Assembly (NCBI GenBank): GCA_965226375.1
Contig: CBDDCX010000006.1
Coordinates: 608,001-672,000 of the forward strand
Reading direction: 5' to 3'
Origin: Longimicrobiales bacterium
GTDB lineage: Bacteria > Gemmatimonadota > Gemmatimonadetes > Longimicrobiales > Gaopeijiaceae
DNA: 64,000 nucleotides
Position numbers: made by a program. Below are positions 21,001 to 36,000 of the stretch, one piece after another (the first letter of the stretch is position 1; every line of letters begins with the position of its first letter).

Positions 21001-24000
21001 CGACAGGGCCGCGCTCGCCGGGGCCACCTACGCGTCCGCGTCGCGGGTGATCGGGTCCACCTCATCGGACACGCCGTGACTGTGGCCGAGGCACTCTCTT
21101 GCTGCCACCCGGCGAGGCCCTAAGGCCCTGACGCTTCCGAGCCCGTCAGAACGTACCGACAAGGCTGAAGAACAGTTGCCCGTCGTTGTTGGAGCGAGCC
21201 CCGCGAGCCACCGCCTCACTGTCGTATGCGTCAACGAAAGAGAGCTGCAACGCGATCGTCTGGTTGAGCCGGAAAGCGAGGCTGTTACGCGACGTGAGGG
21301 TGTAGGTGGAGAGATCCGTCACTTCAGGTTCGTACGTGGTGTCACTCTCCCAGCGTATGGGACCCCCATCCGCCCCCCAGGTGATCTTGAGCCGGGCAGA
21401 GCCCTTCCCGACGACGCCCTCTTCTTCGCCGGCGCCCTCTCGGGGAATGGTCTTCTCAGCAACCACTGCAAGGCTCATCTCGGCCTGAGCACCATCCTCG
21501 GACCCGAACTGATACCGCCCGCCGGCCCCGGCGTTGTAGCGAAGATCGATCTTCTTTTCGAAAACCGACTCCATCTTTCCTCGCACGAAGCCGTTCAGCG
21601 CGCTGCCCGAGGCCAGATTCGCCTCCAGCTCCCCATCCCAGGCCCGCTTGTTCACACGGTTGTCCCCGTCCTCGTTGCTGGACTCTCCGTACGCGAAGCC
21701 CAACCTGCCGGCCCAGTCGAGCACACCTTGGTCGAACGTTCCGGAGAGGGCGGTGGTCACGGCCGACTGGCTGGTGTTGCCAAAGAAGATGCTCGCCCCG
21801 ACCTCGGTCTTCGCGGACCACCTCTTCTCCTGTCCGTAAGCCGGACCCGCAACAAGGATCAGGCCTGCGAGGACCACGATCATACCTCTCATATTGACGA
21901 CTTTCCGTTACGGACCGGAGTCCACCCACTCGCGGACCTGTACCACCGGCCATTGCGCGCTCACTGGCGATCGGCCGAGCGCAGTGAAGTATTCTGCGAC
22001 GGGCGGAAGCTACCCCGTGAGGTCACGCGGGTTCACGCATGGGGCCCCTTGCCCGTTCCGTCCGCCCTGAACACGTTTACGTCCCGCCGGCACCCACTCG
22101 GGCGGACCTCACCTCATCTCTGGCTGAAGCTGCATTGAGCAATATTTCCGAGCGCCCCCTGGCCGGTCTCACGATCCGGATCGATCGAGACCTGTGCGTA
22201 GGATTCGGTGACTGTATCGATGCCGGCCCTGACGTGTTCGAGTTCGACGAAGAGAGCATTGCCGTCTTCAAGGAGGGCAACCCCGACATCGACCGAGAGG
22301 CGCTCCTAGATGCCTGTTCGTCGTGTCCGGTCGACGCTCTCACGGCCCTGGATGAGGAGGGGACCCAGCTCGTCCCGTAGCGGAGGACTACTGCCGAATC
22401 CGATGCGCAAGATCAGAAGCTACCGAGAGGTCACCCACGAGACCGGGTCCCAGCTCCTCGAGCAGGTAGTCGAGCAACAGGAGCGACTCGCGGCGCGGCT
22501 CGCTCCCGTGGGATCGGTGGTGGCCGTGGCCAGCGGAAAAGGCGGTGTGGGCAAGAGCGCCATTACAGCGAATCTGGCCGTCGCTCTCGCCGAGCGCGGA
22601 TTGTCGGTCGGAGCCGCCGACGCGGATCTCAACGGGCCTTCTCTGGGCCGTATGCTGGGGGTGTCTGGCGCGCGCCTGGTCGATCGAGCGGAGGGAGTGG
22701 AGCCGGCCGTGAGCCCCACGGGAGTACGAGTCATGTCCATGGAGTTGCTCCAACAGGACGAGGACACGCCACTTCGGTGGCGAGAGCCGTCTACCGGAGG
22801 ATTCATTTGGCAGAGCACATTGGAGACCGGCGTGCTAAGAGAGTTTCTGGGTGACGTTGCGTGGGGCAACCTCGACGTTCTACTGGTCGACGTTCCCCCC
22901 GGAACGGACAAGATCGCCCGCCTCATGGAGTTGGTGCCGGATCTCGATCAGATGCTCCTCGTGACCACTCCGTCGGAGACCTCCCGCTTCGTCGTCTCGA
23001 AATCGGTGAGGATGGCGCGCGAGGCGGGCGTCCCGATCGTGGCCCTGGTGGCGAACATGACGGAGCACGTCTGCCCTTCCTGCGGGCACACGTCCCAGCT
23101 GTTCCACGGCGACGGGGCCCGGCGTCTGGCCGAGGAGTCGGGCGTACCGCTCTGGGGCGACATCCCCTTCGACGCGCGGCTCGGCGCTTCCACCGACCTG
23201 GGATCGCCGCTGGTGCAGGAAGACCCGGAAGCGGCCTCCAGCCGCGCGCTCTCGGCTCTAGCCGACCGAGTCGCCGCCGCCATCGAGGGGAATACGGAAT
23301 GAAGTTTCTCTGCCTCGAGTGCGACGACGTGATGGACTTCGCCGAGCGGCAGCTTCCCGGCGACGGAACGCTGACCGCCGTGTTCAGATGCGGCTCCTGC
23401 GGACGAGAGGTCGCAATGCTCACGAACCCCATGGAGACGCAGCTCGTGTCGAGCTTGGGAGTGAAGATCGGGGGTCGCGAGGTACCCTCGCAGCCCCTCG
23501 AGATGGTCCGCACCTCTCTCGAGGGGGGCAGAGAAGAGGCCTTCGACATCTCGGGGGACATTCCGAGACAGCCGCCCGAGCAGCCCACACCCACTGGGCA
23601 GCCGGTCGGATGGAGCCCTGAGGCCACGGAGCGCTTAGCCAAGGTCCCCAGCTTTGTGCGAGGCATGGTGAAGCGTATCTACGTCGACTGGGCCAAGGAA
23701 AACGGGGTGGCCGAGATGACGCCAGATGTCATGGACCGGGCCCGGACCGATCTGGGCTTGGAGGATATGTAGGCTTGTTCCCGGCCAGGGTGGACGGTAC
23801 ATACTCGGACCTGATTGCCGTCTTTAATATGGGCGATTCCGGTAGGGAGTAGGTGTCCGTTCGGGTTTGTTGACAGGTCTCAGAAGGGCCGGGTATACTG
23901 GCCCCCGGGTACGACCCCCTCGCAGCCTCGGAGGGGCAGGACAAGGGCTCGCGAGACACTCGGTACAAGGGCATAATACGAGGTTCACGAGGACTGAAAT

Positions 24001-33000: not shown

Positions 33001-36000
33001 GCTGAACTGAATCATTCACAGGTATTAGGAGGGCAGTATGACGGATCGAACTGAACTGCGTAGGGTGTTCACGCCCGCGCTGGTGGCACTTTTTGCTATG
33101 GGCTGCGGTGGTGGTGACGGTGGCGGAAGCAGCTCCGGTGGCGACTCCGGCGGAGCCGCAGTCGAGAACCCGGTCGACGCGGCGACGGCGGGTAACATCG
33201 CCGGTTCCATCGTCTTCGAGGGCGACGCACCCGCGATGGCCACCATCGACATGAGCGACGAACAGGTGTGCGCGGACAAGCACTCGTCGACTCCCATGAT
33301 CGAAGAGGTCTCGGTGAGCGACGGCATGCTCGCCAACGTGTTCGTCTACGTTAAGGAGGGGCTGGAGAGCCTGCAGTTTCCGACCCCTGGCCCAGCGCTT
33401 CTCGACCAGGACGGTTGCACATACCTCCCGCACGTCCTCGGCGTCATGACGGACCAGGACATCACCATCCGTAACAGCGACGGCGTGCTGCACAACATCA
33501 ACGCCTCGCCGAGCGAGCAGCGTGGCTTCAACACCAGTCAGCCGATCAACATGGAGAGCACCCGGAGCTTCGGCACGGTCGAGATCATGGTTCCGGTGCG
33601 CTGTGACGTGCATGGCTGGATGACCGCCTACATCGGTGTGCTGCCTCACCCGTACCATTCGGTGTCCAGCTCCGACGGAAGCTTCGACCTGTCCACGCTC
33701 CCCCCGGGTGACTATGTGATCGAGGCATGGCACGAGCGCTACGGTGCTCAGACTCAGAACGTAACCGTGGCCACCGGCGAGACCGCCGAGGTCACGTTCA
33801 CTTTCAGCGCGTCCATGGCCGGTGCCGTAGTTCCGTTGGGTGAGCCCGTCGATCTTCACGACCACACGGCGGCTACCGACAGAGACTAGAACGCAGGGAG
33901 GGCCCGTCGGTTGAGTGCGGCCGGCGGGGCCGACCCGAAGTGTTGTTCCAATCGAGCTTCCGGCTCGGGAGAGGAATCAGATGAACTTTTCCTGGCTCAT
34001 GCCAGAGACCGTGTCCACCTTTGGACCGGCCCTGGACGACCTCTACTACGTGATCCTGTGGATTACGGGCATCGTGTTCTTCATCACGGAGATCGTGTTG
34101 GTGGTCCTCCTGGTGAAGTACCGCTACAAGGAAGGTCGCAAGGCTGCATACATTCACGGCAGCAACAAGGCCGAGGTCGTTTGGACCATCACCCCGTTCG
34201 TCATCGTGATGGGGCTAGTCATCTATTCCAAAGGACTCTGGGACGAAATCCGGGATCCGGCGAACATTCCGCCCAACGCGTATGCGATCGACGTCACGGC
34301 AAAGCAGTACGAGTGGAACGCGACGTACCCGGGTGCGGATGGTCAGCTTGGCACCGCGGACGACTTCGTATCTCGAAACGCACTGCATATTCCGGTGGAT
34401 CGACCGGTGCGAGTCAACCTCCGCGCCGAAGACGTGCTCCACTCCTTCTTCCTTCCCGCGTTCCGGGTAAAGCAGGACGCGGTGCCCGGCATGATGACCC
34501 CGGTGTGGTTCGAGGCGACCCGGACGGGTGAGTTCACGCTCGCATGTGCGGAGCTGTGTGGACTGGGGCACTACCGAATGAAGGGCTCTGTCACGGTCCA
34601 TTCGCAGGCCGATTTCCAGTCCTGGCTCGACGGCCGGCAAGCCGACGAGGAGGACGACCGATGAGCACGACTACTGTAGCCGAGACGCACGCCGGCCAGG
34701 TAGAGGAGCACCACGACCTCGGCTTCATCCGGACTTATGTGTTCTCGACCGATCACAAAATGATCGCCCGGCAGTTCCTCTTCACCGCGTTGTTCTTCCT
34801 GCTGCTGGGAGGTATCCTGGCCGGAATGGTCCGCTGGCAACTCGGGTTCCCCGGCCAACCGATACCGCTAGGCAACCTCTTGCCGGACACCATGGCCCCG
34901 GGCGGGATCATCCTACCGGAGTTCTACAACTCGTTGGTGACGATGCACGCCACCTTCATGGTGTTCTTCGCACTCATGCCCATGCTGGCGGGCGTCTTCG
35001 GCAATCTGCTGATTCCCCTCCAGATCGGCGCGGACGACATGGCGTTCCCGCGCCTCAACATGGTTTCCTTCTGGGTCGTGCCGGTCGCTGGTACAGTCAT
35101 GCTGGCCAGCTTCTTCGTTGAGGGGGGAGCGGCTGGAGCCGGATGGACGTCCTACGCGCCCCTGAGCACGTCGGGTGAGTGGACCGGCGTCTATATGGGG
35201 CAGATACTCTGGCTCGTCAGCCTCATCATCGTGGGCTTCTCGTCCATCCTGGGTGCGGTCAACTACGTCTCGACGGTCATCAACATGCGGGCACCGGGCA
35301 TGACCTGGTTCCGGATTCCGCTTGCCACCTGGTCCCTCTTCGTCACTGCGTGGCTGCTCCTGCTGGCCGTGCCGATCCTTACGGGTGGGCTCATCCTGCT
35401 GCTCTTCGACCAGACTATCGGGACCGCCTTCTTCCGCCCCGAGGGGAGCGGCGAGCCGCTATTGTGGCAGCACATATTCTGGTTCTTCGGCCACCCGGAG
35501 GTTTACGTCCTGATCCTTCCGGCCATGGGGTTCGTCTCGGACATCATCGCCTGCAGGTCACGGAAGCCGATCTTCGGGTACCACGCGATGGTCATAGCCA
35601 TCGCCTCGATCGCGTTCCTGGGATGGATCGTGTGGGGTCACCACATGTTCCAGAGCGGCATGAACCCACTCCTGGGTATGACCTTCATGGTTACGACGGT
35701 GGTCATCGCTGTGCCGTCGGCCATCAAGACGTTCAACTGGCTGGGGACGTTATGGCGCGGCAACATCCATCTCGACACGCCGCTTCTGCACGCCGTCTCC
35801 TTCGTGGCGCTTTTCATCATCGGCGGCCTCTCGGGAATCTTCATGGCCGTGGCGCCCGTAGACATCTACATCCACGACACCTACTTCATCGTGGCGCACC
35901 TCCACTACGTACTGGTGGGCGGAACTCTGTTCGGGATCTTCGCCGGCATCACGTTCTGGTTCCCGAAGATGTTCGGGCGCTTGATGCACGAAGGCTGGGG

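Follow-up and report, generated by a model that had tools for sequence, protein, structure and literature searches.

A five-gene cassette with PCP_red domains as a candidate cofactor-maturation module of a CydB-less bd-like oxidase in a Longimicrobiales bacterium

In the stretch of 64,000 nucleotides analysed here (the window), which comes from a Longimicrobiales bacterium, genes for a ferredoxin, an Mrp/NBP35 ATPase, a Zn-ribbon protein with a PCP_red domain, a tandem Usp protein with two PCP_red modules and a radical SAM/SPASM enzyme with a PCP_red tail lie immediately 5′ of a CydB-less CydA-like gene (Table 1). Because the five genes accompany a bd-like oxidase, we consider that they are most likely the oxidase's own cofactor-maturation helpers and not an ordinary haem synthase. 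In its full form, our reading is that they constitute a dedicated cofactor-maturation module of a CydB-less, cytochrome-c-partnered bd-like oxidase complex, and we give this reading a probability of about 55%. Full-text literature searches found no description of the five-gene cassette.

Table 1. Features of the array, in window numbering; all cassette and oxidase genes are on the + strand
Feature	Position	Strand	Evidence and remarks
Small single-cluster ferredoxin, g01113	22039..22380	+	Pfam Fer4_13 E 2.5e-10, residues 48-101; true start may be further downstream
Mrp/NBP35/ApbC-type P-loop ATPase, putative Fe-S cluster carrier, g01114	22403..23302	+	PF10609 (ParA/NUBPL) E 1e-70
Zn-ribbon + linker + PCP_red adaptor, 157 aa, g01115	23299..23772	+	PCP_red E 6e-12, residues 105-149
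Sigma-70-like promoter match	23870..23899	+	TTGACA-18-TATACT, 11/12, in the 440-nt gap before g01116; weak lead only
Tandem Usp + two PCP_red modules + Cys-bearing C-terminal tail, g01116	24212..26353	+	Usp E 4.5e-28 (2 stretches); PCP_red E 1e-15 (2 stretches)
Radical SAM + SPASM + PCP_red enzyme, g01117	26350..27729	+	Pfam; ORF 26266-27729, GTG start 26350
CydA-like membrane protein, quinol-site-less bd-like (OR-N-type)	27811..29571	+	PF01654 (Cyt_bd_oxida_I) E 6e-21
Membrane-anchored dihaem cytochrome c	29633..30430	+	Cytochrom_C, Cytochrome_CBB3; CxxCH at 62 and 190
Membrane monohaem cytochrome c	30448..31245	+	CxxCH at 165; three hydrophobic segments
Dihaem cytochrome c fused to EB_dh (haem b-binding), C-terminal anchor	31245..32999	+	Cytochrom_C E 1.4e-19, EB_dh E 1e-18
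CarboxypepD_reg beta-sandwich protein	33038..33889	+	PF13620 E 4e-9
coxB, coxA, coxC of an A-type haem-copper oxidase, end of array	33915..37111	+	COX2, COX1 (E 1.5e-146), COX3; CoxB 33915-34664, CoxA ORF 34544-36454, COX3 36458-37111

The gene array and its oxidase

An earlier note on this DNA had described five co-oriented genes with these domains upstream of the CydA-like gene. Pfam confirms the genes and domains, and it matches the PCP_red positions given for g01115 (Table 1), g01116 (570-614 from the second Met, or 575-619 in the 713-aa ORF) and g01117 (394-438 from the GTG start). A second, weaker copy in g01116 at about residues 408-436 scores 24.5 bits, under the cut-off. The genome has four PCP_red matches, every one of them inside the cassette, and PCP_red genes are absent from its second oxidase gene set, which lies on contig C4, a point against our reading. 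The ORF of g01114 opens at 22310, with ATG 22403 as the likely start. Its stop overlaps the start of g01115 by 4 nt, and in most of 48 listed orthologous pairs this stop and start likewise fall together; the stop of g01116 also overlaps the GTG of g01117 by 4 nt. Three sigma-70-like sites occur in the region, where chance alone would give 3.2. Between 27729 and 27811, from g01117 to the CydA-like gene, there is no terminator-like site, and the first on the + strand after COX3 lies at 37522-37542.

According to Pfam, the cassette is followed by the CydA-like gene, the cytochromes c, the CarboxypepD_reg protein and then coxBAC. Aligned by phmmer with 5DOQ_A and 9R2G_A, the CydA-like protein has equivalents of His19 (H50), Glu99 (E137) and His186 (H218), and a search of the genome (90% complete) found no CydB (PF02322). 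The EB_dh fusion protein scores 90 bits with the NCBIfam model DMSO_red_II_gam. The CarboxypepD_reg gene is a conserved member of the oxidase set, being present at 49 of the 53 loci with room for it and also in the sets of the second phylum considered below, and coxB is found at 49 of 52 such loci. These features resemble the OR-N family of the cytochrome bd superfamily (Murali, Gennis and Hemp, bioRxiv 10.1101/2021.01.16.426971), which in the main text of that preprint includes CydB-less CydA homologues with His19 and Glu99 equivalents and with cytochrome c donors in the operon; OR-N2 is often the sole cydA-like gene of its operon. This OR-N-type likeness rests on these described features. 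The term "radical SAM" does not occur in the OR-N main text or in two later genome surveys, and therefore the accessory cassette falls outside the OR-N description as published there.

The ATPase, the adaptor and the PCP_red domain

The ATPase g01114 has the P-loop GKGGVGKS of the Mrp/NBP35/ApbC carriers (PF10609), and the CxxC motif of these carriers is retained in 43 of 49 orthologues. However, it scores under both equivalog cut-offs, with 219.6 bits for MrpORP (NF041136; E 7e-65; cut-off 450) and 162 bits for ApbC (NF008669; cut-off 348), and it differs from the carriers in a conserved insert at about residues 113-152, with W126, R146, E147, D151 and W154 invariant.

Across the orthologues of g01115, the cysteines C5, C8, C31 and C34 are invariant, and the protein matches the BchB tail in NCBIfam at E 3e-10. 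The AF2 model (pTM 0.40) has a ribbon at 1-62 and a three-helix PCP_red domain at 103-152, and this bundle fits 2KRU with an rmsd of 1.1 Å over 51 columns (Foldseek). Mrp/MinD-type HypB binds Zn-containing HypA; the Foldseek matches listed for g01115 include no HypA, just generic Zn ribbons such as NrdR. ESMFold2 complexes of two Mrp chains, g01115 and two ATP gave ipSAE values of 0.75, 0.68 and 0.62 (median 0.68), against 0.00 for the best of three controls, with at least 80% of contacts in common between runs and a partner pLDDT of at least 73. In calibration, 116 of 157 solved complexes attained the ipSAE mark, as did 2 of 215 mismatched pairs; these counts are only roughly valid for this model because it used its own alignments and a ligand. 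In the modelled interface, Mrp residues 89-99 and 113-152 face residues 1-83 of g01115 together with four residues of PCP_red. The model thus supports contact of the Mrp dimer with the Zn-ribbon head of g01115 rather than with PCP_red, and the g01114 insert is predicted to be the docking face for g01115.

PCP_red (PF08369) is the C-terminal domain of BchB/ChlB and is also known from the stand-alone structures 2KRU and 2L09. Three cassette proteins score above its Pfam cut-off, and the cassette sequence matches extend to residues 464-525 of the DPOR subunit ChlB (2YNM_D). Its fusion partners here, unlike in BchB/ChlB, are a Zn ribbon, a Usp tandem and a radical SAM enzyme; the organism is a non-phototroph, and BchN, BchL and the BchB core of DPOR are absent.

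Joint occurrence of enzyme and oxidase in two phyla

In a sample of 401 Gemmatimonadota genomes (at least 85% complete, the unpublished G180 included, related genomes being non-independent samples), the tailed enzyme occurs in 114 and the CydA-like gene in 115; 114 genomes have the two together and 286 have neither. In the one extra genome with a CydA-like gene but no enzyme, the CydA-like gene is truncated at its 5′ side. The CydA-like gene lies directly 3′ of the enzyme gene in 113 of the 114 (gap 2-372 nt), the exception being a contig break. Presence is patchy within one family, with 11 of 11 genomes in one genus and 0 of 24 in another. Other unpublished genomes in our counts are G095 (ChdC count), G402 and G055. 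Because cassette and oxidase genes form one physical block in Gemmatimonadota, their co-inheritance there follows partly from linkage.

The second phylum, that of locus L065, was sampled with 201 genomes, ten of which carry the CydA-like gene. The tailed enzyme is present in nine of these and unclear in one; the two genes are on different contigs in four genomes and 4-9 kb apart in four others. None of the 191 genomes without the CydA-like gene had a tailed enzyme at E≤1e-85 with one query, a threshold at which four carriers were also missed. The cassette and oxidase parts are the same with the gene order shuffled, all ten carriers hold several PCP_red domains, and a Usp-PCP_red gene lies within or adjoins every CydA-like set. 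The link to a CydB-less CydA-like oxidase drawn in the earlier note is therefore borne out by near-perfect co-occurrence in two phyla, even when the genes are unlinked: module and oxidase genes are retained jointly and lost jointly.

No other gene adjoins the radical SAM gene as regularly as the g01116 homologue, which is its neighbour at 52 of 57 loci in Gemmatimonadota and at 27 of 32 in distant metagenomes; the ferredoxin lies 5′ of the radical SAM gene at 43 of 49 related loci with room. Fourteen distant metagenome loci have flanks of 7 kb or more on either side. A CydA-like gene is present in just five of these, and six of the nine without it look like a single lineage.

What the enzyme may act on

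The nearest NCBIfam families of g01117 are NirJ2, AhbD, TIGR04053, NirJ and AhbC. The protein matches the models of NirJ2 and of AhbD (haem b synthase, TIGR04545) over their full length (E 1e-81 to 1e-84), and its relatives have invariant CX3CX2C and SPASM cysteines, as in the haem-type side-chain remodelling enzymes AhbD, NirJ2, NirJ and AhbC. However, with 282.6 bits for NirJ2 and 273.6 bits for AhbD (E 2.7e-81), against a cut-off of 500 for both, it attains no more than about 55% of either, and it shares about 33-40% identity with clear AhbD-type representatives. The NCBIfam E-values for AhbD, MrpORP and the BchB tail agree in strength with the Swiss-Prot matches quoted in the earlier note. 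All but one of the 120 best database matches (119) share the fusion to PCP_red pointed out previously, and one to four PCP_red modules occur on the radical SAM enzyme in 43 of 150 representatives. In the AF2 model (pLDDT 87, pTM 0.85), linker and tail are confident. A quick tree places the PCP_red-tailed proteins apart from every AhbD-high, NirJ2-high and TIGR04053 representative (SH-aLRT 100). Judged by sequence, g01117 is thus a member of a distinct PCP_red-tailed subfamily within the AhbD/NirJ2 clan of radical SAM/SPASM enzymes. Identification as an AhbD equivalog is rejected on these scores and this topology, and the label "AhbD-type haem synthase" in the earlier note is not supported.

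A rival reading, which takes up that note's oxygen-independent coprohaem-to-haem line, is that g01117 simply decarboxylates coprohaem without oxygen as an AhbD isoenzyme, supports ChdC at low oxygen and adjoins the oxidase genes because both are needed there. We regard this as unlikely, despite evidence in its favour from Gemmatimonadota. The organism does have the ChdC route, as had been claimed, with ChdC and a ferrochelatase on contig C5 and neither HemN nor HemF in the genome. Of 32 Gemmatimonadota with the cassette, 29 have ChdC, as would suit an AhbD-like isoenzyme in that phylum, and AhbD as an anaerobic stand-in for ChdC, in coproporphyrin-route organisms without other Ahb enzymes, is an idea already published (PMC13564367). 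Furthermore, in family f4 the array of one genome continues into ctaB, a ChdC-Rieske fusion, hemE and ferrochelatase (hemH), and in another only chdC is seen behind coxC. These genes, together with the ctaA, ctaB and HugZ-like (PNPOx/DUF2470) genes that flank the enzyme at L065, are independent contexts that back the general haem theme of the earlier note. However, the distribution of the enzyme follows that of the bd-like oxidase rather than the type of haem route: ChdC is also found in 23 of 89 Gemmatimonadota genomes without the cassette, no Gemmatimonadota genome without a CydA-like gene had the cassette, and the tailed enzyme accompanies the oxidase instead of ahbA/B/C, AhbA/B fusions being confined to the AhbD-high group. 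In the second phylum, HemF or HemN is above the cut-off in eight of the ten carriers, and none has a full ChdC or an AhbB above the cut-off; coprohaem is therefore an unexpected intermediate in genomes where the tailed enzyme nevertheless occurs. Bulk coprohaem decarboxylation is thereby ruled out as a general role, and the proposed oxygen-independent coprohaem-to-haem line fails as a general function.

It is more doubtful still that the enzyme acts on something other than tetrapyrroles, modifying or cross-linking an oxidase subunit or tailoring a different respiratory cofactor, for instance a quinone, with PCP_red as no more than a protein-protein assembly tag. The solved structures nearest g01117 are the peptide-modifying SPASM enzymes PqqE, SkfB, SuiB, CteB and anSME, and no His, Cys, Met or Tyr able to ligate haem iron is conserved in the PCP_red consensus. 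Moreover, helix 398-420 of BchB is reported to touch protochlorophyllide (PMC12022308), and the Pfam PCP_red stretch of BchB (about 464-519) comes after it; no stated function for this last stretch was found in the accessible DPOR literature. In what looks like one lineage without the CydA-like gene, the Usp-PCP_red and enzyme pair, as at L108, has a B12-radical SAM gene and a UbiE-type methyltransferase as neighbours. At L119, a UbiE-like methyltransferase and an FAD monooxygenase are close by. Such neighbours hint at another respiratory cofactor. Against this, the characterised members of the five best-scoring NCBIfam families all work on Fe-tetrapyrroles, haem genes flank the enzyme at L065 and in family f4, and no conserved small precursor-peptide gene (ORFs of at least 60 aa) lies beside it at the loci examined. 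That the neighbours are merely co-regulated or co-inherited as a block is very improbable. In its favour, the contiguous Gemmatimonadota array could be gained or lost without a functional link and most well-flanked distant loci lack the CydA-like gene, but the second phylum keeps the genes together despite separation and shuffling, and the 4-nt overlaps also speak for a tie.

We therefore return to the dedicated maturation module. The bd-like complex that it serves would combine the CydA-like protein and the beta-sandwich protein with three cytochromes c, one of which bears an EB_dh haem b domain. The ferredoxin is the probable electron donor, and the Mrp-type ATPase, predicted to be held by the Zn-ribbon head of g01115, may supply or repair the Fe-S clusters of the enzyme or drive assembly. 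The Usp-PCP_red array protein g01116, which has the tightest tie to each oxidase set, could be the nucleotide-dependent partner at the oxidase, and the PCP_red modules may link the cassette proteins to each other or, as holders of the kind that the earlier note proposed, to a shared tetrapyrrole. The substrate of g01117 would be a tetrapyrrole that both haem routes provide (haem b itself or a precursor common to the two), and the enzyme would remodel a side chain of this haem-type tetrapyrrole for the oxidase and not produce haem b in bulk.

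The gene array and its bd-like oxidase

The cassette opens an array whose order was read from ORFs and domain matches. A small ferredoxin gene (g01113), an Mrp/NBP35-type ATPase (g01114), a 157-aa protein with a Zn ribbon and a PCP_red domain (g01115), a 713-aa Usp-Usp-PCP_red(x2) protein (g01116) and a 459-aa radical SAM/SPASM/PCP_red enzyme (g01117) are followed by a CydA-like membrane protein, three cytochrome c genes, the third of which is fused to an EB_dh haem b domain, a CarboxypepD_reg protein, and finally coxB, coxA and coxC. Stop and start codons overlap by 4 nt at two junctions, between the Mrp and Zn-ribbon genes and between the Usp and radical SAM genes. 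A domain search of the window ORFs confirmed where an earlier note had placed the domains of the cassette. Two further statements of that note were upheld: the CydA-like partner lacks CydB, in that PF02322 was not found in the genome (4.23 Mb, 8 contigs, 90% complete), and the host has the ChdC route, with both ChdC and a ferrochelatase encoded. All PCP_red domains of this genome lie within the cassette.

Coordinates of the features discussed (window positions unless a contig or locus is named)
Feature	Position	Strand	Remarks
Whole array, ferredoxin to coxC	22039-37111	+	ORFs and domain matches
Sigma-70-like site before the Usp gene	23870-23899		11/12, consensus match only
CydA-like gene	27811-29571	+	directly downstream of g01117
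First + strand terminator-like site past COX3	37522-37542	+	consensus match only
Caa3_CtaG assembly factor	42345-43262	-
COX4_pro gene	47078-47410	-	near the transposase
IS1595-family transposase	47512-48495	-
NrfD-like membrane protein	C6:588365-589342		own genome, about 20 kb upstream of the window; 94 bits
Second bd-like set	L085:6807-13492	-	own contig C4
ChdC-Rieske fusion gene	L087:14575-15651		genome G060; 358 aa; Chlor_dismutase, 196 bits
Neighbours of the ChdC-Rieske gene	L087:13458-14216, 15446-16651, 16587-17000		genome G060
Usp-Usp-PCP_red(x3) gene and its surroundings	L108:5520-11698		metagenome contig, distant lineage

The consensus scan gave no terminator-like site between the enzyme gene and the cydA-like gene. 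Together with the two consensus matches listed in the table, this fits two putative transcription sub-units, one of ferredoxin, Mrp and Zn ribbon and the other of Usp-PCP_red, enzyme and oxidase.

In the CydA-like protein, H50 and E137 align to the ligand His and the Glu of FFFEA in Geobacillus CydA, and H218 aligns to the Mycobacterium His; the three neighbouring genes hold five CxxCH motifs. Hydropathy picked out 10 strongly hydrophobic segments, an undercount from a scan too crude to give a helix number. The conserved His19 and proton-channel Glu, the lack of CydB and the cytochrome c partners argue for an OR-N bd-like oxidase, an assignment made from residues and gene context. The bd-like OR-N family itself is already described (Murali et al.). 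In passages of two later genome surveys, nitrite oxidisers and many other bacteria are taken to use OR-N complexes as terminal oxidases, and the cofactors, subunits and oxygen affinity of these complexes are called still undescribed (PMC12342949, PMC10839748). The accessory genes of the cassette are absent from the portions of the published OR-N texts examined, and preprint supplements may still mention them. Full-text searches turned up no paper linking radical SAM to a bd-like cytochrome and nothing relevant on PCP_red/PF08369.

Several other respiratory genes were found in this genome. A second complete bd-like set on contig C4 consists of the cpdreg gene, a CydA-like paralogue (50% identity), two cytochrome c genes and a cyt c-EB_dh gene, with no PCP_red gene nearby; among the 401 Gemmatimonadota genomes, this type of paralogue is confined to six, and all six carry the cassette too. 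The NrfD-like protein upstream of the window may represent ActC of an alternative complex III. Nothing forces the view that the bd-like set replaces complex III, as cytochrome b (C5) and NrfD-like proteins (C6:588365 and C7) are encoded in the genome. The Caa3_CtaG/COX4_pro stretch (window 42345-48495) may be what is left of a second cox region, or the border of one.

Co-occurrence with the oxidase in two phyla

The cassette is a real and strongly conserved feature. The locus survey used a 9-sequence alignment (a 24-sequence alignment intended for the genome scan held no usable conserved stretch), and its best 80 loci, nearly all from Gemmatimonadota MAGs, keep the array whole. Among loci with room for the respective gene, the CydA-like gene lies downstream in 66 of 69, and the others are retained as follows: Usp-PCP_red in 52/57, Zn-ribbon-PCP_red in 48/53, Mrp in 45/49, ferredoxin in 43/49 and coxB in 49/52. 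Of 401 Gemmatimonadota genomes, 114 encode the enzyme and 115 the CydA-like protein; 114 genomes share both, and in 113 the two genes are adjacent. In the sole non-adjacent carrier the CydA-like gene lies at a contig start, and in the sole extra CydA-like genome the match is truncated at its 5′ side. Four unpublished genomes (G180, G402, G095 and G055) enter the various genome counts of this analysis, and no claim hangs on one alone. Inside a single family the distribution is patchy, the enzyme being present in all 11 genomes of genus g2 and in none of the 24 of genus g3.

Because the Gemmatimonadota array forms one physical block, we also examined a second phylum, that of locus L065 (201 genomes), where it does not. 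The CydA-like gene occurs in 10 of these genomes. At E ≤ 1e-85, the tailed enzyme, that is, a radical SAM/SPASM protein with a C-terminal PCP_red domain, was detected in six of the 10 carriers and in none of the 191 genomes lacking the CydA-like gene; a closer look at the remaining four carriers found it in three (once split over two contig ends) and left one ambiguous. In four genomes the enzyme gene is on another contig than the CydA-like gene; in four more, 4-9 kb separate the two. PCP_red is more widespread than the enzyme, scoring above cut-off in 18 of the 201 genomes: all 10 CydA-like carriers have several copies, and the eight other genomes have a single copy, two of these in BchB-sized frames. 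The same cassette parts recur here in reshuffled order. Genome G403 has a Usp-PCP_red gene with five modules between its cydA-like and cytochrome genes and a second Usp-PCP_red copy beside a paralogous oxidase set; in genome G602, the Mrp and Zn-ribbon genes are still adjacent and the enzyme gene is divergent. Moreover, all five genomes from the locus survey that do not bear the label Gemmatimonadota have an OR-N-like CydA, with multi-PCP_red frames 2-10 kb from it in four. The tie between cassette and CydA-like oxidase drawn in the earlier note therefore stands, on the strength of near-perfect co-occurrence in two phyla, including four genomes in which the genes are on different contigs.

We also surveyed 80 metagenome loci around remoter enzymes, 70 of which are tailed. 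Their constant partner is the Usp-PCP_red gene; where 2.5 kb or more of upstream sequence is covered, it occurs in 27 of 32 loci. Of the 14 loci flanked by 7 kb or more on each side, only five contain a CydA-like gene, a count read from contigs. Six of the nine well-flanked loci without it resemble one lineage, in which the Usp-PCP_red/enzyme pair adjoins a UbiE-type methyltransferase and a B12-radical SAM gene. On the metagenome contig L108, which belongs to a distant lineage, the Usp-Usp-PCP_red(x3) protein has a rubredoxin-like insert, the pair follows a UbiE/COQ5 methyltransferase and a B12-binding radical SAM gene, and no oxidase genes were found within 10 kb on either side.

The radical SAM enzyme and its substrate

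The label AhbD-type haem synthase, under which g01117 had been reported, could not be kept. The protein matches the AhbD model (TIGR04545) end to end at 273.6 bits and the NirJ2 model end to end at 282.6 bits, both short of the cut-off of 500 and hence of the equivalog threshold, and it scores 256.8 bits with TIGR04053 (cut-off 395). Searching 1.84 billion cluster representatives returned 860 relatives at E ≤ 1e-30, and of the 123 representatives that reach 320 aa, 107 were run against the models. The nearest ones, about 30 in number, fall like g01117 between 245 and 350 bits with the AhbD model and with the NirJ2 model alike; clear AhbD types, several of them fused to AhbA/AhbB, reach 400-502 bits and clear NirJ2 types 404-533 bits, and the window protein is only 33-40% identical to either. 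A quick, unrooted maximum-likelihood tree of 94 cores (IQ-TREE) sets 27 rows (24 PCP_red-tailed, including the window protein, and three untailed) apart from 67 others with an SH-aLRT of 100. The 67-row side holds all 18 AhbD-high, four NirJ2-high and two TIGR04053 rows, so that g01117 falls outside the AhbD clade. Because its scores are below the cut-offs and its branch on this quick tree is separate, g01117 is, as judged from sequence, a member of the AhbD/NirJ clan but forms a subfamily of its own.

The fusion of radical SAM, SPASM and PCP_red claimed for 119 of the 120 best hits was borne out; with a profile built from close homologues, one to four PCP_red tails were detected in 43 of the best 150 representatives. 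Two of the 120 hits are named 'heme b synthase' and two further ones 'AdoMet-dependent heme synthase'; proteins of the g01117 type should not be annotated 'heme b synthase'. Both Radical_SAM and SPASM are matched in Pfam, and among 66 sequences C48, C52 and C55 (CX3CX2C) and the SPASM-set cysteines C256, C280, C298, C335, C338, C344, C347 and C365 are invariant. We know of no solved structure of AhbD or NirJ, and the solved structures nearest to g01117 are peptide-modifying SPASM enzymes. The AF2 model of g01117 (pLDDT 87, pTM 0.85) predicts both the linker and the PCP_red tail with confidence, so that the modelled tail probably packs against the enzyme core. Four of the 114 Gemmatimonadota carriers (G321, G039, G346 and G183) have one to three in-frame TGA or TAG codons within the radical SAM match, which may be assembly errors, pseudogenes or recoding.

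Every characterised member of the five best-scoring NCBIfam families acts on Fe-tetrapyrroles. At L065, the unlinked enzyme is flanked by ctaA, ctaB and a PNPOx/DUF2470 gene. In family f4, the array of genome G060 continues into ctaB, a ChdC-Rieske fusion, hemE and ferrochelatase, and that of genome G044 has chdC behind coxC. These three independent contexts, the clan, the L065 flank and the end of the f4 array, point to haem. The fusion protein of G060 joins ChdC to a C-terminal Rieske [2Fe-2S] domain and is encoded between ctaB (UbiA) and hemE plus ferrochelatase, at the end of the cassette-oxidase-cox array; in at least 10 family-f4 genomes, the radical SAM gene is followed at a distance of about 10.5 kb by a ChdC-family frame of 361-388 aa.

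In Gemmatimonadota, it is possible that g01117 is an AhbD isoenzyme, a concept that is already in print in passages of PMC13564367. Coprohaem is available in its own genome through ChdC and ferrochelatase, and ChdC occurs in 29 of 32 cassette-bearing Gemmatimonadota genomes versus 23 of 89 others; HemN was found in 10/121 and HemF in 15/121, and only one genome with HemN or HemF carries the cassette. However, plain coprohaem decarboxylation does not fit the second-phylum carriers: eight of the 10 have HemF (4) and/or HemN (7) above cut-off, no carrier encodes a full ChdC (weak matches of half its length occur in two), and none has AhbB above cut-off. The same carriers tell against the coprohaem-to-haem line that the earlier note proposed, when taken as a general role. 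Orthologues with 57-62% identity occur in both haem-route backgrounds, and the only constant across the two is the bd-like oxidase. Therefore, the enzyme more likely takes a substrate common to both routes, i.e. haem b or a shared precursor, and makes its product for this oxidase. As a separate observation, 47 of the 121 Gemmatimonadota genomes (at least 85% complete), including all three sampled g3 genomes, have none of ChdC, HemN (above cut-off) and HemF.

The Mrp pair, PCP_red and the proposed maturation module

The ATPase g01114, a putative Fe-S carrier, matches PF10609 at 238 bits. Its Walker A motif, GKGGVGKS (S44-S52), is invariant, 43 of 49 orthologues retain the CxxC, a candidate site for a bridging cluster, and the protein also has a conserved insert; its scores with MrpORP (219.6 of 450 bits) and ApbC (162 of 348) are below the equivalog cut-offs. 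When the Mrp dimer was modelled with g01115 and two ATP, ipSAE came to 0.75, 0.68 and 0.62 (median 0.68) against 0.00 for the best of three controls; the ipSAE mark, reached by 116 of 157 solved complexes and by 2 of 215 mismatches, is a rough guide here, as own alignments and a ligand were used. At least 80% of the contacts agree between runs, and the partner pLDDT is at least 73. Binding between Mrp and g01115 is thus supported by the predicted complex, and we know of no solved complex that resembles it. In the confident interface, the insert (113-152) and residues 89-99 of Mrp face residues 1-83 of g01115, a stretch made up of the Zn-ribbon head and a conserved block that follows it. PCP_red in g01115 stays almost free, touching through residues 119, 122, 123 and 126 alone. 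We therefore rejected PCP_red as the Mrp docking tag of g01115, and likewise a HypA-like fold for the Zn-ribbon head, for which Foldseek matched generic Zn ribbons, all with E above 0.01. Modelled alone, g01115 has two independent domains (pTM 0.40); its residues 1-85 resemble PCP_red clusters of Gemmatimonadota and Nitrospirota in the protein atlas (0.81-0.83), matches that serve as leads only.

The PCP_red domains (PF08369) of the cassette score 45.8, 58.0 and 52.8 bits (cut-off 32.5), and the three-helix fold predicted for the copy in g01115 is matched by Foldseek to 2KRU (E 1.6e-3, rmsd 1.1 Å, TM(target) 0.74) and 2L09 (E 3e-3). In BchB, the Pfam stretch covers about residues 464-519, beyond the helix 398-420 that is reported, in passages of two papers, to contact protochlorophyllide (PMC12022308, PMC4071322); the portions of the BchB literature examined state no role for the last 55 residues. 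Because the stretch follows the helix that touches protochlorophyllide, the basis for PCP_red as a putative tetrapyrrole holder is slimmer than the earlier note assumed, and this role is neither supported nor excluded.

The reading that fits best makes the cassette a dedicated maturation module for the bd-like oxidase, built around a new haem-type radical SAM subfamily. A wider reading that also takes in the chemistry and a function for PCP_red has, in our estimate, about one chance in four. OR-N oxidases would require a haem that is not delivered by the ordinary haem pathways, and the tailed enzyme would produce it by an oxygen-independent route, starting from haem b or a shared precursor, for example through radical chemistry at a propionate of the kind known from AhbD or NirJ. 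The PCP_red modules would act as small tetrapyrrole carriers, taking this haem from the enzyme by way of the Usp-PCP_red array into the membrane complex, and the Mrp-Zn-ribbon pair would keep the Fe-S clusters of the enzyme loaded. If this reading is true, the cassette would represent a new pathway of haem tailoring and hand-over and provide the first function for free PCP_red domains. A helper set that is kept or lost with OR-N oxidases offers a concrete handle on them, and the orphan PCP_red domain thereby gains a testable role.
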